Shown: positions 2,341 through 32,000 of the stretch, one piece after another
Position numbering within the stretch: the first letter of the stretch is position 1
Layout: the number at the start of each line of letters is the position of its first letter
Assembly (NCBI GenBank): GCA_000967895.1
Contig: FO203512.1
Span: forward strand, 3,315,531 to 3,347,530
Origin: Oleispira antarctica RB-8
Lineage (GTDB): Bacteria; Pseudomonadota; Gammaproteobacteria; Pseudomonadales; Oceanobacteraceae
Direction: 5' to 3'
DNA: 32,000 nucleotides
Made by a program: the position numbers and the translations under genes
Notes under the pieces: generated by a model
The model's database searches: none
What the model saw: only the letters and a program-made list of their open reading frames with translations
What the model was told of the DNA's origin: nothing

Positions 2341-3351
2341 TTAATCTCCTAACAAATCGTTAATATCTAAAGCTTCTTCTGCTGGCGATGCATCATCCCA
2401 GAAAGTCCCTAGGCCACCAATGGGAGTACGACTTCCTGTGGCTTCTGTCCATAAACGGTCAGATACTGCTAAAATTTGCTGGGTAGCGACTATATCAAGC
2501 ATGCGATATTGTGCATTAGAAGGTGTAGTTTTCACTGACTGGGCATGGCGACGAATGGCATCACGTAAACGCTCTTCATTACCCGAACCATCAGCAATAA
2601 CGACTTCAACCGCTTGCGCTAAACGAACACCTGCGTCACCCGCTAGGTCGCTGGCATCGGCCAATTCTTGCCAAGGATCAACGCCATCAGGTGCATTGTC
2701 AGGCATCATCGTCCAAACGGCCGCTTGCATCGCTTTTGGAACACCCCACCAGCGCTTAGCATCTAGACACTGACTACCACGAACAGATTTCATAGCGATA
2801 TCTTTTGGCACACCGACTTCACCTTGTCCGCGCACATCACTCATCACGGCTTGTAAGCCACTCACAAGACCTAGCATCCAGAAAAACTCATCTTCTTCGT
2901 CAAGATCAGGACATTCATTCCCCGGCTCACCAAACTCAGCCACTAAGTGCTTATAGCCTTTGTATTGACGATTTGCGGCGAGAGCAAATAAACGCTTTTG
3001 ACGAATACGAGCATCTTTTGCTTCACCGATATTTTGTGCTTTATAGGCACGAAGATAGGTTAAGCCTTCTTCGTTAGCTTTTGCTTCAGCACAAGCGCCC
3101 GCTTGCATGTACATAGAGGTTGCTAGGCGATCAGGAGACCAAGTTAATTCGGTAAAAGATAAGAGCATTGGCGTCATACTCTCACTCATTGCACAACCCA
3201 TTTCCGTATCATCAGTCTTCATAACATACGGCATGGCATAGTCTTCAGCATAATCATAAGCAAACCAACCGGTTGTTGTATAAATAGAACTACAACCTGA
3301 CATGGTTATTAGAATTAGTGCCGCAATGGCAGAGCGAATGCTTAGGTACAT
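2341..3351 (-). CDS. Lipoprotein, probably a TatT-like T-component of a TPR-protein-associated TRAP transporter
   Basis: 336-aa ORF with lipobox ILITMSG|C and a helix-prone Ala/Leu/Arg-rich body. It is the first gene in a lipoprotein / binding protein / fused permease order, as in Treponema pallidum TatT-TatP-TatQM. The family call is from memory and gene order, not an alignment. Confidence 0.45.
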   Translation of the reverse strand: MYLSIRSAIAALILITMSGCSSIYTTTGWFAYDYAEDYAMPYVMKTDDTEMGCAMSESMTPMLLSFTELTWSPDRLATSMYMQAGACAEAKANEEGLTYLRAYKAQNIGEAKDARIRQKRLFALAANRQYKGYKHLVAEFGEPGNECPDLDEEDEFFWMLGLVSGLQAVMSDVRGQGEVGVPKDIAMKSVRGSQCLDAKRWWGVPKAMQAAVWTMMPDNAPDGVDPWQELADASDLAGDAGVRLAQAVEVVIADGSGNEERLRDAIRRHAQSVKTTPSNAQYRMLDIVATQQILAVSDRLWTEATGSRTPIGGLGTFWDDASPAEEALDINDLLGD

Positions 3352-7620: not shown

Positions 7621-9657
7621 ATGTCTCGCTTATTCGTCAAAGCCACAAGTTTAGCGGCAATTTGCCTTACCACATCCTTTAGCTACGCCGATAATGAAGC
7701 GGTACTGGATAACATTCGTATCACTGCCAAAGATGATCCCCTAACCGAGATATCGACTAAGAAGCTATTACGGATGCCGGGGGCCGGTAATGACCCCCTG
7801 AGAGCCATAGAAGCACTACCAGGGGTCACATTTACGACGGGTCGACGAGCGGAACCTGCAGTACGCGGATCGTCACCTGACGATAATCGATACATCATCG
7901 ATTTCATGCCTGTCTTAAACATTTTCCATTTTGATGGCTCTAGCTTGTTAAACGATAATGTTATCGAAAACTTTACGCTAGAAGCCGCTGCTTTTGATGC
8001 ACAGTACAACGATGCAACAGGGGCGGTCATTGAAGCGAATTCACGAGCACCATATACCGATCGAAAACAAGCGGTTATCGATTTCAGTTTATTAAAAGCC
8101 GGCATATTATTAGAGACCCCTATTACCGAAAACTCAGCAGCCTACTTGTCTGTTAGACAAAGTCTTATTCACCTTTATATTGAAAATCTACTGGATGACG
8201 ATGATTTTCAATTCACCACCGTGCCTGAATACTATGATTACCAAGCAAAATATCAGATACAACTATCGGGTGGCGATACATTAAGCATTCAAGCATTAGG
8301 AACACGAGACAAAGCGGGTTTATTATTCGATGACGAGTCCGACCAAATTAAGCGCGAACCAGGCCTAGCAGGCGGTATAAAATTTAATTCGCACTTTCAC
8401 TCTCAAGGCATTGTCTTAGAAAATACCTTATCAGAAACCACACAGCTCAAAACGGGTTTCTCACATATGCTGAGTGATTTCTCGTTAGGATTAGGGCTAG
8501 ACAATAACCTTAAAGCAACCTCCAATGACTATACACTTCGCACTCACCTCAGCACGGATATCAACCTAAATCATACCTTGCGTACGGGTATTGATATTTT
8601 TGAACGCCAAATTGATTTTAAGGGCGACTTCACCGCACCACCTTGCGATCTTACATCCAAACCTTACTGCCCTGTAAGTGATAGCCAAGAACGCATTGTG
8701 GAAAATGATAATCTGAAAATTTATAACTACGATGTATTTATTGCAGACGACTGGTTCGTCAGCCCAACTCTCACGCTAACCCCAGGTGTTTTATGGTCTT
8801 ACGATGATTATTCTGAGCAAACCTTCACCCAAGGTAAATTCAAGCTGCGCTGGGAATTTATCGATTACTGGTGGTTGAATACGGCTTGGGGCCAGTATCA
8901 CAAGTTCACTGATAATTTTGGCGAAGTCGCCAAAGGATTTGGCAACCCTGACCTCAGACAATCTACATCAGACCATTATACCCTAGGAGTTGAGCATCAA
9001 ATTGATGAGTCGACTCTGATTAAGCTAGACACCTATTACAAAACTTTTGGTGATCTTATTATTTCTCGCCAAGATAAAGATACCGTCTATCCAACACTGA
9101 CTGAAGATCAGTACCAAGCACTTCCTCGCTATACCAATGACGCCGACGGTGACGCTTATGGCTTTGAACTATTTATCAACAAATCCTTTAGTGAAGGTTG
9201 GTACGGCTGGTTATCCGCAGCGTACTCAGAAACTCGACGTCATAATAAAATAACAGGAGAAGATTTTAAGTATGCTTACGATCAACCTTGGATCATTAAC
9301 TTAGTCTCTAACCATGAGTTGAATGAAGACTGGACCATTGGATTTAAATGGCGCTATCAAAGTGGTCAGCTCATAACACCAATTATCGATACTAGATCAG
9401 TTACAAATCCCGATTATGTAATCCCTATCTATGGCGAGCTAAACTCTAAGCGCCTAGCCGACAGTCATAAACTCGACATCCGCCTAGACCGAAACTATCA
9501 ATATAAAAGCTGGAACATGGATTTATACGTCGAAGCCTTGAACGTGTATAACCAAGCAAACGTCACCAGCTATGAATACAACGCCGACTATACAGAGAAA
9601 GACGATGTTACCGGGCTTCCAACCATTATTTCCTTTGGTATAAAAGCGAATTTATAA
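7621..9657 (+). CDS. TonB-dependent outer-membrane receptor, substrate unknown
   Basis: 678 aa with signal peptide ending SYA|DN. A TonB-box-like LDNIRITA is followed by a plug region, GNDPLRAIEALPGVTF...PAVRGSSPDDNRYIIDF, and a long beta-rich barrel with Y/W-rich strands. RBS AAGGA is present. The C-terminus ends in L rather than the usual aromatic residue. Confidence 0.8.
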   Translation: MSRLFVKATSLAAICLTTSFSYADNEAVLDNIRITAKDDPLTEISTKKLLRMPGAGNDPLRAIEALPGVTFTTGRRAEPAVRGSSPDDNRYIIDFMPVLNIFHFDGSSLLNDNVIENFTLEAAAFDAQYNDATGAVIEANSRAPYTDRKQAVIDFSLLKAGILLETPITENSAAYLSVRQSLIHLYIENLLDDDDFQFTTVPEYYDYQAKYQIQLSGGDTLSIQALGTRDKAGLLFDDESDQIKREPGLAGGIKFNSHFHSQGIVLENTLSETTQLKTGFSHMLSDFSLGLGLDNNLKATSNDYTLRTHLSTDINLNHTLRTGIDIFERQIDFKGDFTAPPCDLTSKPYCPVSDSQERIVENDNLKIYNYDVFIADDWFVSPTLTLTPGVLWSYDDYSEQTFTQGKFKLRWEFIDYWWLNTAWGQYHKFTDNFGEVAKGFGNPDLRQSTSDHYTLGVEHQIDESTLIKLDTYYKTFGDLIISRQDKDTVYPTLTEDQYQALPRYTNDADGDAYGFELFINKSFSEGWYGWLSAAYSETRRHNKITGEDFKYAYDQPWIINLVSNHELNEDWTIGFKWRYQSGQLITPIIDTRSVTNPDYVIPIYGELNSKRLADSHKLDIRLDRNYQYKSWNMDLYVEALNVYNQANVTSYEYNADYTEKDDVTGLPTIISFGIKANL

Positions 9658-21621: not shown

Positions 21622-21731
21622 GAGTCGCCTCCATATAATTTATAGATAGTGATAGATTGGATAGGTTATTAGATCGAATTATCAGCTATATATACCCTTT
21701 AAATGGCACTCTGGCAATAATCGACTACATT

Positions 21732-22703
21732 ATGTGTATGGATAAAAGAATGATACTAAACGGTGCTGGAACTTACTATTTTAAGGTTCACGGCTCAAAA
21801 GATGCCCCTCTCTTTCGCTCAGTATTCGAGTACGAATATTTCAAGCAGATGCTCGCAAAAGAAGAAGGCTGCGAGCTCATTGCTTATGTATTTTCAGAAT
21901 ACCAAGCGCAATGGGTCATGCACTGTAACCAAGACTGGCAAGTGATCTTGGATAATATTCGTGCCCATATGCAAGAGCTGCATTTCAAGCTTTGGCACAA
22001 ACATCAACAAATTATTTCTGAATCAGCCGAAGTACTGCTTGTCGAAGAAGACCGCTATTTAGTGCCTTTAGTCATGGAACTACACCATTGGCCAGTACGT
22101 GAAGGCCTTGTTGCTAGCCCCGAAGTGTACCCATGGAGCTCGGATAAACTCTACCGCCAATCACGCTACCAGAAAATACAGTCCAACTCAGGACTTGCGA
22201 GTCATCGCATGCTACAACGCTTAGCTAAACAACGATTTAATAGCTCTGTATGCTATGAACGGATGATGGAACAGGTTGAACCTTGGTCTATTGAAAATGC
22301 TAAAAATCGTTTATATCAAGCACTCGCGAGCGATGCCTACATTACATTATATCTACGAAATAAAAAGCCGACTCTAGCTCATACAGCAGAGCAAATTAAA
22401 GAGATGCACCAACAAGCAGAAACTTTAATTTGTGAGATCCTAGGTATATCTTTTGGGCAGCAGCAGCCAAGACTTAAGCGCCAATATTATCAGGTTGAAC
22501 CTTTAATACTGTGGCTTTTATTACAATCCCAGTGCAATACAAAACAATTATCCTTCATATTTGATTTGGATCCGACCATCATTCAAGGATGGGTACGCAG
22601 TGTGCCAAGTCTTCACCCAGAGTCATTACTGACAAAAATACAACAACGCTGGCAAGAGAAAATATCCCTAAAAGACTCACTATTACTTTCTCGCGTTAGC
22701 TAA
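21732..22703 (+). CDS. Degenerate IS200/RAYT-like (COG1943, Y1-transposase fold) domain protein with a possible C-terminal DnaA-domain-IV-like HTH
   Basis: It aligns by eye to the COG1943 pattern at YYFKVHG, LFRSVFEYEYF, ELIAYVFSEYQAQWVM, EDRYLVPLVMELHHWPVREGLVASPEVYPWSSDKLY. In ELIAYVFSEYQAQWVM the HUH-type NHxHLL motif is replaced by EYQAQW. The tail reads ICEILGISFGQQQPRLKRQYYQVEPLILWLLLQSQCNTKQLSFIFDLDPTII. The start is uncertain among TTG 21657 and ATG 21732, 21738 or 21750, and no good RBS is visible. Confidence 0.5.
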   Translation: MCMDKRMILNGAGTYYFKVHGSKDAPLFRSVFEYEYFKQMLAKEEGCELIAYVFSEYQAQWVMHCNQDWQVILDNIRAHMQELHFKLWHKHQQIISESAEVLLVEEDRYLVPLVMELHHWPVREGLVASPEVYPWSSDKLYRQSRYQKIQSNSGLASHRMLQRLAKQRFNSSVCYERMMEQVEPWSIENAKNRLYQALASDAYITLYLRNKKPTLAHTAEQIKEMHQQAETLICEILGISFGQQQPRLKRQYYQVEPLILWLLLQSQCNTKQLSFIFDLDPTIIQGWVRSVPSLHPESLLTKIQQRWQEKISLKDSLLLSRVS

Positions 22704-23777: not shown

Positions 23778-25754
23778 TTGCTCATACGGCAAAAGGTTAT
23801 AACAGCAACCATTTTCACCTGCATATTCATTGTTATTCTTGCAACAACGGCCTATATTTTGGCGGCCGATCGTATTGGTCGTGAACAACTAGCGCCTCAA
23901 ATAAGTCGATCTTTTGCTGATATTTTTCAACTGCAGCTGCAACAGAATCCTGACGACATTTTGGCATTAAAAGCGATTGCTAATAGCATGGTTCAACATT
24001 ATCAGATTCAAGAGATTGCTTTCTATAATGCCAAAAACGAACGTATCATTTACGTGTGCTCTAATACTTGTTTACGCAACGCCCCCATCAAATTCAACCC
24101 CAAAAGTGTTAAACATCGTATTGCTAGCAATCATCACTTTATATATAGCCTTCACAGTAATAACAGCGATACTCCCTTAAGACTGATCATAGAATCAAAG
24201 ATAGGACTCGCCAGATTTTTCTATGCCGACACCGCTTCAACCGCCCTACTCATTGTTAGTATTTCAACGCTATTACTTTTCTTTTTATATAACAGCATTC
24301 GTTTTTGGCAGAGATCCCCCTACCAAAATTTATTAATGACTATCGAAAAAATTCAATCTCAACCTGATAACAGCATTCGTTTCGACTTAAAAGATGCCGA
24401 TACCGCTAAACTGAGCGAAGCATTAAACACATTAATTATTATTAATGAAGATCGAAAAATAATCTTAACCAAAGAAAAAGAAAAAGCTGAAAGCGCTAGA
24501 ATTAGAGCCATACGTTTATCAAACGAAACGCGCCATACTAATGAAAAACTTGCACGTGAAATCACCATTCGTCGGTCTGTTGAATCTCAACTAACTCATA
24601 CTCGAAGTATCTTAGACAGCATCATTGACTCAATGCCCTCGGCATTATTTACCCTCGATAATAATGGCTATATCATACAATGTAATCAGCAAGCAGCAGA
24701 TTGGCTCGCTTGTGAGCGTCACCCATTGGTAGGCAAGCGCCTATCCAATTACATAGAAGAATTGAAAGATTTTAATACTCTAATCAATCAGAGTTTGACA
24801 GAAAATTGCGTTAAGAAAATTGAACGATTGAAACTCTCTTTACCCATTGGAACCTTTCCTGCCGACATAGCAATTTACCCTCTTAAAGATAATAACTTAC
24901 AAGGTCTTGTTATTCGCATTGACGATATTAGTCAGCGAGAAAAAATGGAAGAAGTCATCATGCAAACGGAAAAAATGAAATCCGTTGGCGGTTTAGCAGC
25001 AGGAATGGCTCACGAAATTAATAACCCGTTAGGGGCAATATTACAGGGAATACAAAACATTCAACGTCGAATTCAAGTTGATAATGAGAAAAATAAAGAA
25101 ATTGCTGCAAGTCATAACCTTGATCTAAAAGCCATGACCGGTTATTTAGAACAACGTCAAATACTAAAATTCATCAACAACATTCAAGATGCCGGTAAAA
25201 GAGCTGCGAGCATTGTATCTAATATGCTGCAATTCTCGCGAGGCAACCAAAAACAACTCAGTCCAACATTAATAAAAGATTTAATAGAGCGCTCTCTCAA
25301 CTTGGCCCGTGCTGATCTAGAACTAAAAAACATCACCATTCATTTATCATACATTGATGAAACACTGCTCTTTCACTGCATCCCTTCTGAACTTGAACAA
25401 GTCATATTAAATTTATTACAAAATTCTGCACAAGCGCTCAGCCATTATCAGCCCTCTCATACCGATGAAAATTGGACTCCACAAATCAACCTCTCAGCAA
25501 CCCAAGATAATAGCCACACCTACATTAAAGTTAAAGATAACGGCCCAGGCATGTCAAAAGAGGTACGCCGCCGCATCTTTGAACCCTTTTTCACGACCAA
25601 AGACATCGGTGCAGGTACTGGCCTAGGCTTATCAGTTTCTTACTTCATTATTACCGCTCACCATCATGGCGAGCTTGAAATTGAATCTAAACCCAACCAA
25701 GGCGCATGCTTCACTCTCAAAATCCCTAATCAGCCGCTACTGCCTAAACCGTAA
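23778..25754 (+). CDS. Membrane sensor histidine kinase (two TM helices, PAS, HisKA, HATPase_c; NtrB/AtoS-like core)
   Basis: 658 aa from a TTG start with AGGA upstream. H-box is [12 protein letters not shown]-box LLQNSAQA, G1 DNGPGM and G2 GTGLGLS. A PAS-like segment, [29 protein letters not shown], is present. No response regulator gene lies next to it. Confidence 0.85.
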
Positions 25755-25840: not shown

Positions 25841-25850
25841 ACGCGCTCGT

Positions 25851-26070
25851 TTAGGTGCTACTAGGTATTCTTACCTAGAAGTTAAACGGGAAGTTTGGTA
25901 AGTCACTGCAACGCAAACGAATCCAACGCTGCCCCCGCAACGGTGATCGGCTTAACTTATTGTTTTATGCCACTGTGGTGCTCTCTTTGATATTTTAAAA
26001 GATTGAGCCTATGGGAAGGTGCAATAAGAGGAATTTAATTTCCAAGCCGTCAGCCCGGATACCGGCCTAA
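25851..26070 (+). promoter_or_regulatory. Cobalamin (B12) riboswitch aptamer
   Basis: The conserved elements appear in the canonical order: aacGGGAAgtttGGTaAg (25885-25902), GAATCCaacGCTGCCCCCGCAACGGT (25919-25944), GCCACTG (25969-25975), GGGAAGG (26013-26019), and the B12 box AGCCCGGATACCGGCC (26052-26067). The closing helix is TTAGG (25851-25855) with CCTAA (26066-26070). It lies directly upstream of a TonB-dependent receptor gene. Confidence 0.9.
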
Positions 26071-26158
26071 CTGCTATAGATTCTAATGTTGCGGCGGGCA
26101 GCTTAGGCGAAATTTTTCGCCTTCTCTTCCTGCGCAAACATATTATTAATGTGGTTAT

Positions 26159-28111
26159 ATGCGCATTCTACTCCTGCTTTCCATACTATTGCTGTCATTA
26201 AACGGCCTCGCCAATGAAGAGATTCATTTGGGAAGTTTGACTGTGGGAGCCAGTAAAGAAGATTTAATGAATTCTGATTACCAAGTTTTCCAACGTGAAG
26301 ACTTTGTTAATCGCTACCAAAATTTAGCCAGTTTTTTACAACAACAAAATGGTCTACAGATTCAACAAGCAGGTGGTTTAGGTAATCCAGCATTAGTATC
26401 TATTCGCGGTGCCAGTGCGAGCCAAACAACCTTACTGGTTAACGGCATAAGCGCTAATAATAGCCAACATGGTGGATATGATTTAAATACAATCCCGTTA
26501 AATCAGATTGAACGTATAGAAATAAGCCGTTCTGGCAGCTCATTTGACCTTTCTGATCAAGCGATAGGCGGTACGATTAATATTATTACTCGTGAAGGGG
26601 CTAATAATCAAAATTTCAGCCTCAATCTAGGCTCAGAAGAGACCCTAGCAGCATCATTTAGCAGTTCATTTGATCAAGGTTTAAGTATTCAAGTAGACCA
26701 CGAACAAAGTGCAAATTCATATGATTACCCAGTACCTAGCCCAATTGCAAACAGCAGTCAACGCAATCAAGACCAACCCTTAAACAACGCAGAGTTTTCT
26801 CGTTCGAGCGTTCAGCTAGTTCAGTCTTTTGAAGAAATATCTGCAAGAGTAAGACTGAATAAACAAAGCAAAAACATACCAGACTATTTTCGTAATCACC
26901 CCAACAACAATGCGAGTTTAGATAAGCAAGACGCTACTTTTTCTTTACAGGGCAAGCACAAGCTAGAGCATGAAAATACTAACAGCGCACTCGTTAGCGA
27001 ACATAACTGGCAAGTATTTCACCAAAAAACAAATGAACACTATCAAGATGACATGGGAGTTATTGGTTTAGGAAAAGATAATGATAAATTTTATCAAACT
27101 CGATCTGAAGCCCAATGGCAGTCAAAGTTATTATTTGAGCAATGGCAATTTCAAACTCAAGTCTCAGGCTATGAGGAGAGTTTTTCTAGCCGATATCTTA
27201 ATGATGACGACAGTTTTTTATGCTCGACTCCACAAGGAAACTGTGATCAAAAAGCCTACCAACAAGGCATTCAAGCCCTCGCTGGGGTTCGCTGGGCGAA
27301 TAAAAAACAAAATCAACAAATTACAATCGATGTATACCAGTCTCATACTAATAGTTATAACCGTAAACGCAGCAGTACAAAGGATAGCGAAGAAAAAAAT
27401 AAATATTTCATTGGCTACAATCTTAAATACTCAGTTTTTAATGATGCTAGTGAAACGCACTTTAGTATAAAAAATAGTAATCGCCAACCAACTCTATACC
27501 AGCTGTTCGGTGATAGAGGCCTATTATTAGGTAACCCTGATTTGCTTGATGAAACAAGCTTGAGCTATAGCGTTGATAATTTGTACAGTATTAACGACAG
27601 ACACCAAATGAATAGCGCAATTTTTTATCGTCAATTGAAAAATGCTATTGTCCCAGTTTACGATTCTCGTGGTGTTGGTCGCTATGAAAACAGTAAAAAA
27701 GCTTATCTTGCGGGAATTGAATGGCAATGGCGCTATCAAGGGGATCACTTTTATAGCCATTTAGGCGCTGATTTATACCAAAGTGAAAGCTTGGATGACA
27801 ATGTAAAGTCCTTTAATAATAAGCAAATAGCCGGTATTTATCACAACAGCGTTAGCCTCATCACGGGCTGGTCGCAACAGCAGCATAATATTGAATTAAT
27901 CAATCGTATTAATGCCAATATTTATATCGATCGAAGCAACTTAATTGCAGGTGATAACTACCACCTGACCGATATAAACTATCAGTATCAATACTCTCAA
28001 ATCTCATTGGGCTTTAGCATTAAAGACCTAATGAATACTCGATATAAAGACTTTACCAACCGTCCCGCTATTGGACGACAATGGATTGTTTTTACAAATT
28101 TTAACTTCTAA
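26159..28111 (+). CDS. btuB: TonB-dependent vitamin B12/corrinoid outer-membrane receptor
   Basis: 650 aa with signal peptide MRILLLLSILLLSLNGLA|NE and a TonB-box-like LGSLTVGA. The plug region reads NGLQIQQAGGLGNPALVSIRGASASQTTLLVNGI...ERIEISRSGSS, and the C-terminus is FTNFNF. The substrate call rests on the upstream B12 riboswitch. Confidence 0.8.
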   Translation: MRILLLLSILLLSLNGLANEEIHLGSLTVGASKEDLMNSDYQVFQREDFVNRYQNLASFLQQQNGLQIQQAGGLGNPALVSIRGASASQTTLLVNGISANNSQHGGYDLNTIPLNQIERIEISRSGSSFDLSDQAIGGTINIITREGANNQNFSLNLGSEETLAASFSSSFDQGLSIQVDHEQSANSYDYPVPSPIANSSQRNQDQPLNNAEFSRSSVQLVQSFEEISARVRLNKQSKNIPDYFRNHPNNNASLDKQDATFSLQGKHKLEHENTNSALVSEHNWQVFHQKTNEHYQDDMGVIGLGKDNDKFYQTRSEAQWQSKLLFEQWQFQTQVSGYEESFSSRYLNDDDSFLCSTPQGNCDQKAYQQGIQALAGVRWANKKQNQQITIDVYQSHTNSYNRKRSSTKDSEEKNKYFIGYNLKYSVFNDASETHFSIKNSNRQPTLYQLFGDRGLLLGNPDLLDETSLSYSVDNLYSINDRHQMNSAIFYRQLKNAIVPVYDSRGVGRYENSKKAYLAGIEWQWRYQGDHFYSHLGADLYQSESLDDNVKSFNNKQIAGIYHNSVSLITGWSQQQHNIELINRINANIYIDRSNLIAGDNYHLTDINYQYQYSQISLGFSIKDLMNTRYKDFTNRPAIGRQWIVFTNFNF

Positions 28112-28126
28112 TAAATAGAGATCATT

Positions 28127-29329
28127 ATGAAAATAATAACCCCCTTATTAATTGCAACAAGTCTATTGATTGGTTGTGGAGCTGATAATGATAAGAAGAA
28201 AAAAGACTTCAAGATTTCACAAGATTCTTATGCCGTACAAACTGTCGCATCCGATTATTCCAGCAGTCAGGTTGCGATAGGTAACCTAATCGGTGATCGA
28301 TCAGCAACCCAAGGCTTATTAACTAAAGCAGAATCTAACTTCACTATCTCTACTTATGAAAATAATCTTTATCATATCGGCAAGAATCAAATAGACGCTA
28401 TTAGCCGCTATGATGCTACTCAGAGCGTTTCAAACAGCGAATGGGCCTATGGCGCAAACCATGACGACGAAGGTTCTGCGAATACTTATACTCTTGTGCA
28501 ACAAAATGCGACTAATGGATATTTAATTCGCTATGGCAGCACTTTTGTACTGCAAGTAGACCCGAGTGCGGCACTCGAAGAAAATTTCGTAAAAGCAAAA
28601 ATTGATCTTTCAGCCTATAACTACCCAGGTTCCGAATATCCACGTATGGTTGATGCTGTGATTGCTGATAATAAGCTTTTCGTTGCTCTGCAACGCTTAG
28701 ATGGCTGGGCACCAAAGCCAGCCTATATTGCGGTTATCGATATTGAAACTAACGAAGAAATTGATACTAATATTCAAGAAGATGGTTTTAAAGGTATTCC
28801 TTTAAATGCAACCAACACTTTTTCTTTAGTCGAACATAATGGTCAGATATATGCAGCAGGACGTGGCGGCTATAACTCCGATACTGGCGGCTTAGATGTA
28901 ATAGATACGACTACTTATGCCATTACCCAACTAATTGATGAAAGCAGCTTTCCTCAATTAATTGATTTTAGTGATGACGATAACAATTCGAATGACAGCT
29001 ATTACCACGTATTAGATGTAGCAGTGGTAAGTGATCAACTAGCGTATGCCACATTAAATATTGAAATTGGCTATAAAACTATTGAAACAAAAATCGTAAT
29101 GATTAATCCCAGCACAAAAGAATTAACGATATTATCTCAACCTACTGCTATAAATGGTAAAGAGATCAGTGATCTTAATATCGATTCGAATGATCGTTTA
29201 TGGGTAGGCATTGCAAATGCCGATGCACCAGGCATTTGGGTTATGGATACCGATACCAACACTATAAGCGGTGATTTCATCGAACTTGATATGCCTGCGA
29301 AACGTATTGAGTTTTTAACCGTACAATAA
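28127..29329 (+). CDS. Lipoprotein of unknown function with YVTN/YncE-type beta-propeller-like repeats
   Basis: 400 aa with lipobox SLLIG|C. A recurring 'hydrophobic strand ... (V/I)(I/M)(D/N)xx(T/S)' unit appears four times: KLFVALQRL...AYIAVIDIETNE; GQIYAAGRGG...GGLDVIDTTTYA; LAYATLNIE...KIVMINPSTKE; DRLWVGIANADAPGIWVMDTDTNT. It starts 15 nt after the btuB stop. Confidence 0.6.
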   Translation: MKIITPLLIATSLLIGCGADNDKKKKDFKISQDSYAVQTVASDYSSSQVAIGNLIGDRSATQGLLTKAESNFTISTYENNLYHIGKNQIDAISRYDATQSVSNSEWAYGANHDDEGSANTYTLVQQNATNGYLIRYGSTFVLQVDPSAALEENFVKAKIDLSAYNYPGSEYPRMVDAVIADNKLFVALQRLDGWAPKPAYIAVIDIETNEEIDTNIQEDGFKGIPLNATNTFSLVEHNGQIYAAGRGGYNSDTGGLDVIDTTTYAITQLIDESSFPQLIDFSDDDNNSNDSYYHVLDVAVVSDQLAYATLNIEIGYKTIETKIVMINPSTKELTILSQPTAINGKEISDLNIDSNDRLWVGIANADAPGIWVMDTDTNTISGDFIELDMPAKRIEFLTVQ

Positions 29330-29373
29330 AAGCATAACCAATGTACATAAAACGCACACATAAGGAAAAAATC

Positions 29374-29958
29374 ATGGGCAACCGACTATCAAAAATATCC
29401 ACCAAAACAGGTGACAAAGGCGAAACCGGCTTAGGTGATGGTAGTCGGATTAGTAAAACGTCGACACGTATTCACGTCATTGGCGAAGTCGATGAAGTAA
29501 ATTCTTGGGTGGGTGTTTTGGCCGCTGAATTGGATTCAGACGATCATCATCAGATGATTCTTAGCCAAATTCAGCATGATTTGTTCGATCTAGGTGGCGA
29601 GCTTTGTGTGCCAGGCTATAAAGCCTTAGCACCCAGTATGCTCGAAGAATTAGAAAATACACTGGTTAATATCAACGAAGCCTTACCCCCGCTAAAGGAT
29701 TTTATTTTACCGGGTGGCAGCAAAGCTGCATCTTATTGTCACATGGTAAGAACGGTTAGTCGTCGTGCGGAACGTTCGATCGTTGCTTTAGCTAACGAAG
29801 AAGCTGAGGCGGGTAATGAAATTAATCCACTTGCGGTTCAGTACCTAAACCGCTTGTCAGATTTTTTCTTTGTATTAGCCAGAGATATTGCTAGAAAAAA
29901 TGACGGCCAAGAAATTCTATGGAAAAGCCGTCATACGAAATCTAAGAAAGATGCTTAA
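29374..29958 (+). CDS. PduO-type ATP:cob(I)alamin adenosyltransferase
   Basis: MGNRLSKISTKTGDKGETGLGDGSRISKTSTRIHVIGEVDEVNSWVG is the PduO/MMAB N-terminal signature. I chose ATG 29374, which follows RBS AAGGA, rather than the track ATG at 29341. Confidence 0.88.
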   Translation: MGNRLSKISTKTGDKGETGLGDGSRISKTSTRIHVIGEVDEVNSWVGVLAAELDSDDHHQMILSQIQHDLFDLGGELCVPGYKALAPSMLEELENTLVNINEALPPLKDFILPGGSKAASYCHMVRTVSRRAERSIVALANEEAEAGNEINPLAVQYLNRLSDFFFVLARDIARKNDGQEILWKSRHTKSKKDA

Positions 29959-30047: not shown

Positions 30048-32000
30048 CTATACTTTGAATCGTTCGACCCTTTGCTTTAAAGACTCCGTTAAAGACTGAG
30101 TTTGACGCACGGCATCTACCGTTCCTTCTACATTTTTTGCGGTCTCTTCACCATGCCCTCGAATAACCGATAAATTATTATTCAAGGCTTTAGCTGCTTC
30201 TTGCTGACTGCTGGCAGTGGAAACAATCTCTAATGTCTTTCTTTGAATCTCTTGCATACTACCTTGAATACTTTCTAAGGCCTCACCCACCTGACCAGAA
30301 CTATCAACTGTTTTATTTACCATCGTTCTATTAATTTCCATAGTCTCAACAGCGCGTTGAATATTTTGCTGTACTTCCTTAATGAGACCTTCAATTTCTT
30401 CAGCTGAACCCTGTGTACGACTCGCTAATGTTCTCACTTCATCAGCAACCACCGCAAAACCACGCCCTTGCTCACCCGCACGCGCAGCTTCGATTGCCGC
30501 GTTTAATGCCAGTAAGTTAGTTTGTTCGGCAATCCCTTTAATCGTACCTAAAATAGAGCTGATATTGGTTGAGTTATCGGCTAAACGATTCACCGCTTCC
30601 ATTGAATTACTCATTTCTTCCGACAGTTGCTGCACATCGGTAATCACATGATCAACCACTTTGCCTGCTTGCTGTGAACGATCCGCTCCCGAAAGAGCCG
30701 CTTGTTCAGCCTCACCCGCCATGATGACAACCGTACTCGCTCGATCAGACATATCAGTAATCGTATTCGCAACTTCTTCAGTTTGCAGCATCTGAGTATT
30801 CACTGACTTACGACTGTTATTTGCAATAGTCTCGACATCAGCCACCTTTTCACCGACATTTTCAGCGGTATCTTTGACTGTTGACAAAATGCCACGAACT
30901 TCTGACGTCATTTCATTAAAGGCATCCCTTAATTGCCCCATTTCATCTGTGCCAGCAAAGACTATGACCTGAGTTAAGTCTCCTTTTGCTATCTTTTGGG
31001 CGGCACTAAAGAAGCGGGCGATAGAGTATTGAACTGATAAGAAGAAGGCCGAGTACAAGTAAATAATAATTGCCATTACTGTTAATAATACAGACGCGGT
31101 CACCAACATATGTGAATTTTGATCATCTAAACGTGCTTGTAATTTTTTACCAATTAATGGCAATACCATGCCATCTAGGTCACGCAACGCCTGTATTTTA
31201 GACTGAGCCATCGCTTCAAAATCAACCCAATCCATAGTGACACTCGTTGCAGCGATGATTTCTTCATCTAATGTCATCTGAATATCAAGCATGCCATTAC
31301 CCGAATTTTTAGCCTGTTCAGCAACGCTATCTAAGCCTAATGCTTCTAAACTACTGGTCACTAACTGTATATCTGGTACTGCAGCAGCCATTTGATCAAA
31401 GACGTCATTTAAAAAATCATAAGTCATAGATTGAAGGTATTTTTCAATCATCGCGAAAATGCTCGCTGAATAGCCAAGACCTGCCGCATCACGTATCACA
31501 GGTGAGTTGGCTAGAGATATGATCAATAACTGCTGAATCTCGGGATCTGAATCCAGCGCTAAACCTGTGCTTTGTGCGTACTTATTAATCACAAGATAAA
31601 GCTGATCGATTACTTCCTGATAAAACTTAAATTGATCAGGCAAGGTAGGCATTCGCGCATTACCATCAACACTCAACTTGCTGAAATTATTCTTTTTAAA
31701 AGCAATCAACTGTTCGCTAAGGTCATCATTTTCAATGGCCTCAATCGCTTTGTTAAATTGGCCATCAATACTTAAACGATATTCCTTCACTCGGCTATTC
31801 AGCCTTGTGTCCTGCTGAAAGATCGATGGGGATGCATAATTACGATAATCTTCAATCGTATACACAACATTCATCATGCTTTGGATATTATCTACCGCAA
31901 CTAATTCACTCTCAGTTTTCTTTAGACTTTGATAGGATGCATAAAATACTTGGCCACTTAAAAAGACCAAAGGCACCATGAATAAAAAGCTAATCAATCC
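30048..32000 (-). CDS. Methyl-accepting chemotaxis protein; its N-terminus is probably cut by the right edge of the window
   Basis: It carries TM1, a ~275-aa helical periplasmic sensor domain and TM2 ([23 protein letters not shown]). The HAMP domain reads [32 protein letters not shown], and the MCP signalling hairpin reads [40 protein letters not shown]. The track start at 31997 is a TTG inside TM1, and the frame stays open to 32000. Confidence 0.88.

Follow-up and report, generated by a model that had tools for sequence, protein, structure and literature searches.

A candidate BtuG-like corrinoid-capture lipoprotein in a cobalamin riboswitch operon of Oleispira antarctica

Introduction

Few microbes synthesise vitamin B12 and most require it; in sea water it is scarce and shapes bacterial and algal communities. 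To our knowledge, the only outer-membrane lids that capture B12, the BtuG proteins, come from gut Bacteroidota. A 32,000-nucleotide (nt) stretch of the genome of the marine gammaproteobacterium Oleispira antarctica RB-8 (contig FO203512.1, positions 3,315,531–3,347,530 of the forward strand; hereafter the window) raises the question of what a lipoprotein might do in a B12 operon outside that phylum. The open reading frame (ORF) in question, at 28127–29329 on the + strand, encodes 400 residues and begins 15 nt past the stop codon (28111) of a TonB-dependent receptor (TBDR) gene that lies behind a cobalamin riboswitch. It ends 44 nt ahead of a gene for a PduO-type corrinoid adenosyltransferase. 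An earlier reading of the window from its sequence alone (the sequence-only reading) had suggested that the product could be a propeller-like partner of the BtuB-type receptor.

Genomic context, predicted fold and matches to BtuG support that proposal. On profile comparisons and a structural model, the outer-membrane-anchored, acidic, seven-bladed lipoprotein is probably a BtuG-like corrinoid-capture partner of the riboswitch-controlled TBDR encoded immediately upstream.

Wexler et al. reported, from BlastP searches of gut genomes at 1e-10, that BtuG homologues occur 'exclusively' in Bacteroidetes (PMC6143338). Price and Arkin placed the lids of TonB-dependent transporters (TBDTs) almost solely in Bacteroidota, apart from the ElpS family (10.1101/2023.03.17.533168). 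A review of September 2026 discussed BtuH and BtuJ, and not BtuG, beyond Bacteroidota (PMC13616437). A search of the literature for a BtuG-type protein outside Bacteroidota found no description, and the literature searched places BtuG only in that phylum, in keeping with the earlier remark that no gammaproteobacterial equivalent has been characterised. The proteins described below form a real, conserved and unannotated gene family, undescribed in the literature searched.

A gene family tied to cobalamin uptake

A word-indexed search retrieved 138 relatives of the lipoprotein, and those with organism names all came from Oceanospirillales-type taxa. An exhaustive profile search extended the family to 1240 representatives of clusters at 50% identity (E ≤ 1e-3), with 297 at E ≤ 1e-30. 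The distant clusters are nearly all unnamed or called 'hypothetical protein', and a database entry for 'hypothetical protein [Oleispira antarctica]' is an identical partial copy of the window protein.

Gene order was assessed in 15 genome loci spanning Oleispira, Thalassolituus, Oceanobacter, Parathalassolituus, Catenovulum, Paraglaciecola and a Pseudoalteromonas metagenome-assembled genome. A homologue of the window TBDR lies directly upstream of the lipoprotein gene in all 15. The propeller gene shares an operon with a TBDR gene in 22 of 22 assessable loci, and directly adjoins it in 21. Sequence reaching far enough upstream was available for the window and 21 other loci. A co-oriented cobalamin riboswitch precedes the operon in the window and in 20 of those 21; L009, the remaining one, has a weak match (25 bits, E 5e-4), and the loci left out of this count are those whose sequence ends too early upstream. 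The association with a TBDR and a B12 riboswitch expected from the window alone is thus borne out among homologues, at 15 of 15 loci and at 21 of 22 plus one weak match, respectively. The family is tightly tied to B12 uptake.

Nine distant representatives were also sampled, and a TBDR was present in each locus save L024/L025, where the upstream ORF is incomplete and has no Pfam match. The order is TBDR–propeller in Catenovulum maritimum (L017) and L021, and BtuF–propeller–TBDR in L022/L023. Locus L020 encodes a TBDR, a double propeller, BtuF, FecCD (BtuC) and an ATP-binding cassette ATPase (BtuD), and L026 encodes a TBDR, a propeller, ExbB, ExbD and TonB, and adjoins CbiK and CobN. In Hahella chejuensis (L027, CP000155), the TBDR and propeller are followed by CobQ, CobU, CobT, CobS and CobC. 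In L018, a 71-residue ORF (2194–2409) with no Pfam match lies between the TBDR and the propeller and overlaps the propeller start by 4 nt. The genes that follow the propeller vary: five of the 15 genome loci have PduO, Hahella has salvage genes and others have transport genes. The receptor is constant. BtuF/BtuCD and cobinamide-salvage genes are frequent partners, and separate BtuF genes accompany family members.

Predicted fold and structural relatives

An AlphaFold2 model of the window lipoprotein, built on 42 homologues, has a predicted local distance difference test (pLDDT) score of 90.5 and a pTM of 0.88. It is all-β, with approximately 28 strands forming seven four-stranded blades, and the propeller runs through to the last residue. 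The sequence-only reading had noted four blade-like repeats and proposed a check for a propeller of six to eight blades. These repeats are real but incomplete, as they represent the A–B (inner) strand pairs of blades 4–7 in a confidently predicted seven-bladed propeller whose best matches in the PDB are to BtuG.

In a Foldseek search of the PDB with this model, ranks 1–13 were all Bacteroides BtuG or BtuB–BtuG entries (8okv, 8bmy, 8bmz, 8bmx, 8p97, 8bn0, 8bai and 3dsm), with E values of ~1e-11, target-normalised TM scores of 0.73–0.77 and sequence identities of 10–12%. The group that followed was another TBDT lid, XusB (E 5e-10, TM 0.59–0.67, and 0.62–0.67 when normalised on the target). Generic propellers gave TM scores of 0.67 or less, and lactonase structures ranked well below BtuG. 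E. coli YncE, which the sequence-only reading had offered as an analogy, ranked 38th.

Profile comparison with BtuG

A comparison set was made by aligning 11 BtuGs that Wexler et al. (2018) give in their supplement. In hhalign, the family matched this set with a probability of 98.4% (E 5.6e-15, 341 columns), and a 165-sequence family alignment did so with 99.1% (E 4.6e-19, 349 columns). Collinearity extends all the way from lipobox cysteine to C-terminus, and the lipobox cysteine is paired with Cys32 of BtuG2. A control with the reversed BtuG alignment gave 0.1%. A hidden Markov model of the family scored all 11 BtuGs at 5.9–21.7 bits, and reversed sequences at 3.9 bits or less. When BtuGs were compared singly, four reached at least 93%, three of them in register over 241–347 columns. 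YncE, compared as a single sequence because a YncE profile search yielded just near-identical E. coli copies, reached 0.4% with the alignment designated A1 and 23% over 58 columns with the wide profile; with its Foldseek rank, this makes the YncE analogy weak.

Neither phmmer nor hmmsearch found BtuG in the PDB, from the single sequence or from the profile, and both inputs gave just a short Reg_prop-like blade match to BT4663. A Pfam/NCBIfam scan of the lipoprotein matched no family, the sole match being 13.5 bits to a 24-residue propeller motif. The protein had been said not to resemble BtuF, and Peripla_BP_2 (PF01497) indeed has no match in it at E ≤ 1.

Pfam DUF5074 (PF16819) was considered as a marker of BtuG, since it covers BT1954 at 73.6 bits. 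It was rejected because E. coli yncE (L028 5308–6369) also carries precomputed PF16819 matches, which indicates a broad model of YVTN-like propellers that is not specific to BtuG. Among 118 family members, eight touch PF16819, all below threshold.

By predicted structure and profile together, BtuG is the closest characterised relative of the family. Homology with BtuG at the level of the superfamily is likely from these alignments; beyond that, the family may share a specific common ancestor with BtuG or may represent the independent recruitment of a similar propeller.

Conserved positions in the putative pocket

The published roles of BtuG2 residues (PMC10404256) were placed on the family by position, with a register that is uncertain by one to two residues. 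Cavity residue Trp194 of BtuG2 corresponds to family W194, which is aromatic in 91% of both families. The G-x-Y motif that includes the corrinoid-contacting Tyr239 corresponds to G247/Y249 (Gly in 92%; Tyr or Phe in 81%), and the invariant Asp204 of BtuG to D205 (93%). The invariant pair Gly89-Asp90 falls on S70-D71 (88% each), and the window protein has Asn at position 71. The blade 1 loop that clamps B12 in BtuG2 (Asn54–Thr64) aligns with VAxDYSSSQV, the most conserved motif of the family; this region is conserved in both families, and its sequences differ. These positional equivalences are suggestive. Residue-by-residue transfer of the BtuG2 pocket carries limited information at 11% identity.

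Lipoprotein features and proposed mechanism

The N-terminus of the window protein, MKIITPLLIATSLLIG/CGADND, combines a single basic residue and a hydrophobic core with an L-I-G-C lipobox, whose Cys17 is encoded at 28175–28177. Cys17 is invariant in 42 of 42 close and 118 of 118 diverse homologues, and a strict PROSITE-like lipobox pattern occurs in 229 of 265 family members. The tether that follows has a pLDDT below 50 through residue 24 and of 62 for the block 21–30, and its length and sequence vary across the family. After the cysteine, Asp or Glu occurs at position +4 in 60% of members and at +5 in 46%. The mature window protein is strongly acidic (isoelectric point 4.2; 56 Asp/Glu versus 25 Lys/Arg).

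It is proposed that, when B12 is scarce, the riboswitch permits expression, so that receptor, lipoprotein and PduO would be made together. After lipid attachment at Cys17, the lipoprotein would be delivered to the outer membrane. With Gly at +2, the window protein has no signal for avoidance of the localisation of lipoproteins (Lol) pathway; nor does the family, most members of which have Gly, Ser or Phe at +2 and just 5% Asp. On a flexible tether of ~16 residues, as in BtuG2, the propeller would dock on the receptor. Cobalamin or cobinamide would then be bound in the central cavity, aided by the negative charge of the protein, and handed to the receptor for TonB-driven import. In the cytoplasm, PduO would adenosylate the corrinoid. 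The charge has a counterpart in BtuG2, whose propeller has a negatively charged face that attracts and binds corrinoids (PMC10404256).

Several results weigh against this interpretation. The best off-register alternative in hhalign reached 97%, with a score of 85 over 158 columns versus 144 over 349 in register. Off-register alignments at this level imply that the YVTN-like blade motif common to the two families accounts for a substantial share of the hhalign signal, much of which reflects similarity between propeller blades in general. The probabilities obtained with single BtuGs span 1–94%, sequence identity to BtuG is only ~11%, and the window lipoprotein has no match to DUF5074. The pocket residues Trp272, Tyr316 and Tyr335 of BtuG2 have no conserved counterparts in the family. 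Surface exposure meets further difficulties, with no dedicated export route for surface lipoproteins in evidence: no Slam/DUF560 gene is present among the neighbours listed for nine loci, the AlphaFold2 model of the lipoprotein contains no C-terminal barrel, and the lipoprotein export signal (LES) is defined for Bacteroidota only, with no LES context at these loci.

Membrane anchors and membrane face

Longer relatives without a lipobox bear on the question of which membrane face the propeller occupies. These proteins, P0188 (L022 6001–7854), P0246 (L026 1645–3843), P0197 and P0231, have ordinary signal peptides and a C-terminal NF041766 'choice-of-anchor U' domain (71–108 bits versus a cut-off of 32). 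Their C-terminal tags are tripartite, with a Gly-rich segment and Cys, a transmembrane helix and an Arg/Lys cluster, and resemble JDVT-CTERM or MYXO-CTERM. In P0188, a DP motif comes nine residues past the Cys, as in JDVT-CTERM (21 bits versus a cut-off of 27). Long, non-lipidated forms also occur in B12 loci (L022/L023 and L026). The class of Cys-containing C-terminal tags has been defined previously (10.1101/2023.06.07.544157), and the MYXO-CTERM tag directs cell-surface anchoring in Myxococcus (PMC11980579).

Judged from sequence, lineages differ in how the propeller domain is anchored to the membrane or surface, and a role at the cell surface is favoured because the same propeller is borne on these alternative anchors. 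Gammaproteobacteria can display lipoproteins, as shown by the type II secretion-dependent surface lipoproteins MtrC/OmcA of Shewanella and PulA of Klebsiella. On balance, the analysis leans slightly towards a lid on the cell surface. A position on the inner leaflet, facing the periplasm, appears somewhat unlikely.

Alternative functions

The alternative that survives best is a corrinoid chaperone facing the periplasm, in which an inner-leaflet lipoprotein would take B12 as it leaves the receptor and pass it to BtuF. Propellers are known in comparable roles: AztD hands zinc to AztC, and NirF is a tetrapyrrole-binding propeller lipoprotein of the periplasm. AztD and NirF/NirN resemble the role proposed here in binding a metal or tetrapyrrole at the central cavity and handing it on. 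AztD and NirN are among the fold matches, at TM scores of just 0.43–0.49, and unlike the family, NirN and NirF are eight-bladed and none of these proteins is linked to a TBDR. As a matter of general knowledge, default Lol sorting in Gammaproteobacteria would send a lipoprotein with Gly at +2 to the inner leaflet. No Slam or LES machinery is visible among the listed neighbours. Price and Arkin also suggested that most non-Bacteroidota diderms lack lid export (10.1101/2023.03.17.533168). On the other side, surface lids head the structural and profile matches, BtuG first and then XusB, and the non-lipidated relatives combine choice-of-anchor domains with Cys-CTERM tags of a class linked to surface display (PMC11980579). 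The co-occurrence of separate BtuF genes indicates that the propeller does not replace BtuF, and an apparent propeller–BtuF fusion (P0202, described below) consists of two merged genes and offers no evidence of a shared compartment. A chaperone of this kind is considered unlikely.

The lipoprotein could also be a structural partner specific to the receptor that does not itself bind corrinoids, such as a factor for assembly, stability or gating, or a shielding lid. The propeller lipoprotein BamB, a partner of the BAM complex, provides a precedent. Strict adjacency and tight spacing with the receptor gene would fit any obligate partner, and several BtuG2 pocket residues are not conserved. BamB is, however, missing from the top 50 Foldseek matches, and the most conserved motifs of the family align with the ligand-contacting loop and aromatic residues of BtuG. 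The strong negative charge likewise matches the electrostatic capture of B12 by BtuG (PMC10404256), and a purely structural role seems very improbable.

Least probable of all is a lactonase- or SGL-like hydrolase that remodels cobamides or their precursors outside the cytoplasm: a few members have scattered sub-threshold matches to Lactonase, SGL and Phytase-like Pfam models, the conserved N119, D205, E211 and N230 could in principle bind metal and the downstream genes encode corrinoid-processing enzymes, but no catalytic family is matched at threshold, Lactonase is touched weakly by just four of 118 members, lactonase structures lie well below BtuG in Foldseek, and the downstream enzymes are cytoplasmic and vary with lineage while the receptor partner is constant.

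The operon and its receptor

The features of the operon in the window are collected in Table 1. The anatomy given by the sequence-only reading, a 400-residue ORF with an LIG-C lipobox and flanking gaps of 15 and 44 nt, was recovered in full. Its B12 riboswitch, then placed at 25851–26070, is an RF00174 match with adjusted boundaries, and both of its neighbouring genes were confirmed by domain matches.

Table 1. Operon features in the Oleispira antarctica window, numbered from the first letter of the window
Feature	Position	Strand	Basis
Cobalamin riboswitch aptamer	25846..26084	+	RF00174, 80.6 bits versus gathering threshold 31.5, full model 1–189
Candidate expression platform, extended hairpin between aptamer and TBDR start codon	26086..26141	+	Minimum free energy (MFE) fold
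TBDR, 650 residues, presumed corrinoid transporter	26159..28111	+	Plug domain
Lipoprotein signal peptide (residues 1–16) and lipid-modified Cys17	28127..28177	+	Lipobox LIGC read from sequence
Flexible acidic/basic tether, residues 18–33, GADNDKKKKDFKISQD	28178..28225	+	Low pLDDT
Predicted seven-bladed β-propeller domain, residues 34–397	28226..29317	+	AlphaFold2 model, Foldseek, hhalign
PduO-type cob(I)yrinic acid a,c-diamide/corrinoid adenosyltransferase, last gene of operon	29374..29958	+	PF01923, TIGR00636

The hairpin downstream of the aptamer is long and imperfect, with the core GGCGAAA/UUUCGCC, and the MFE fold of 26050–26175 has an energy of −35.7 kcal/mol (z = −1.9). It failed a terminator scan, and may be the expression platform of the riboswitch. 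The same scan found no terminator-like site on the + strand from the riboswitch to the middle of pduO. Promoter-like matches numbered eight, fewer than the 13.6 expected from shuffled sequences, and none lies close to either gene junction, as the sequence-only reading had maintained. With neither a terminator-like site nor a junction promoter between the genes, co-transcription of the riboswitch, TBDR, lipoprotein and pduO is plausible.

The TBDR and lipoprotein genes are in the same reading frame. An AAGGA Shine–Dalgarno sequence occupies the gap between the lipoprotein and pduO genes. Because tblastn matches from other genomes begin at the Met at 29374, this is the most likely start of pduO, ahead of an alternative ATG at 29341. 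The product matches PF01923 at 190 bits and TIGR00636 at 179.6 bits (cut-off 108).

The window TBDR has a signal peptide, a TonB-box-like sequence (SLTVGA) and a Plug domain (PF07715, 62 bits), and the Pfam barrel model PF00593 was undetected in it. Its match to the BtuB equivalog TIGR01779 is weak, at 73.6 bits, far under the cut-off of 599.7. Sequence matches in the PDB are restricted to the plug domain, and some sources name its homologues 'vitamin B12 transporter'. This receptor probably represents a distinct, divergent subfamily of corrinoid receptors that co-occurs with the propeller.

Elsewhere in the window, an ORF that by eye resembles a sensor histidine kinase with an H-box (23778–25754, + strand) stops 92 nt ahead of the riboswitch. 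A methyl-accepting chemotaxis protein-like ORF, also recognised by eye (30048–31997, − strand), is convergent with pduO. Three further ORFs, at 2341–3351 (−), 7621–9657 (+) and 21657–22703 (+), encode 336, 678 and 348 residues, respectively, and have no Pfam match at E ≤ 1e-5.

Variant architectures at other loci

A tandem double propeller of 752 residues (P0179, L020 2561–4819) contains a second copy of the family as its C-terminal half (hhalign E 2.8e-44). It sits in a complete TBDR–propeller–BtuF–BtuC–BtuD operon behind a riboswitch.

The 714-residue P0202 (L016 1221–3434) was examined as a Rosetta-stone fusion of the propeller with Peripla_BP_2 (BtuF), and rejected on finding an intact internal Sec signal peptide, MSSRRL...PRAHA/SDQ, at the junction (residues ~419–449). 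The locus has the gene order TBDR–propeller–BtuF–BtuC. On this one metagenome contig, either read-through after loss of a stop codon or the merging of neighbouring propeller and btuF genes in gene calling probably accounts for P0202.

L022 (10026–10148) and L023 (5210–5378) each have another cobalamin riboswitch that begins shortly after the TBDR gene, which suggests that a further B12-regulated operon directly adjoins. In Parathalassolituus penaei (L015 8159–8288), a borderline TwoAYGGAY RNA (43.9 bits versus a gathering threshold of 43) lies ~1 kb downstream of the lipoprotein gene. In the lipoprotein members P0156 (L024 447–1964) and P0145, the propeller is preceded by an additional N-terminal domain of ~100 residues with a weak, sub-threshold Cadherin match (24.9 bits).

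Relation to known systems

BtuG of B. thetaiotaomicron (BT1954/BT2095/BT1490; PDB 3dsm, 8bmx, 8bmz, 8okv and 8p97) is, like the family, an acidic seven-bladed propeller lipoprotein of ~40 kDa with a tether of ~16 residues after the lipid-modified cysteine. In both cases the gene comes right after that of a btuB-type TBDR under a cobalamin riboswitch, often together with btuFCD. The family differs in its distribution, which covers Gammaproteobacteria and other non-Bacteroidota, in its ~11% identity to BtuG, in falling below the DUF5074 threshold and in lacking the LES/export context of Bacteroidota; its corrinoid binding and surface exposure are predictions. The window protein also has ~30–40 extra loop residues, including an acidic insert at 271–290, and matches the BtuG2 pocket only in part.

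Proteobacterial surface lipoproteins that capture a ligand for a co-encoded TBDR are known from the TbpB/LbpB/HpuA-type bipartite receptors of Neisseria and Moraxella. Lipoproteins of the TbpB type consist of lobes with a handle and a barrel, depend on Slam for export and are usually encoded upstream of the receptor. The window protein has an unrelated fold without a C-terminal barrel, and no Slam gene among the neighbours listed.

The xenosiderophore-binding lid XusB of Bacteroides (DUF4374; PDB 9hqe and 9hqk) is likewise a propeller lipoprotein that caps a TBDT, and forms the second-best fold group. It binds siderophores and is encoded in iron-regulated loci, whereas none of the sampled loci places the family outside a B12 context. 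E. coli YncE (PDB 3vgz), encoded beside the pyrroloquinoline quinone (PQQ) transporter PqqU, is also a seven-bladed YVTN-type propeller next to a TBDR. Unlike the window protein, YncE is soluble in the periplasm, encoded on the strand opposite to the TBDR and not a lipoprotein. Deletion of yncE leaves PQQ uptake unaffected (10.1101/2022.06.07.495086).

Perspective

A broader reading of these data is that BtuG-type lids on B12 TBDTs extend beyond Bacteroidota. Marine Gammaproteobacteria (Oleispira, Thalassolituus, Hahella, Catenovulum and Paraglaciecola) and other diderms would then display a related surface propeller on lineage-specific anchors, with lipid at the N-terminus in some and, in others, a Cys sorting tag at the C-terminus combined with a choice-of-anchor domain. 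This generalisation is tentative, and somewhat less likely than not. If true, it would imply a lipoprotein export route in Proteobacteria that has not been described for such a purpose, possibly linked to type II secretion, and very high-affinity corrinoid scavenging in the ocean.

A large unannotated family, of 1240 clusters at 50% identity, belongs to operons under B12 riboswitches in marine Gammaproteobacteria and other diderms. It raises a concrete question, namely by what route lipoproteins of this kind would reach the surface of proteobacterial cells. If the proposed function is confirmed, the lid mechanism would extend across phyla and the family would supply new candidate high-affinity corrinoid binders. 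Annotation of B12 uptake would also improve in marine genomes, where members of the family now appear as 'hypothetical protein'.

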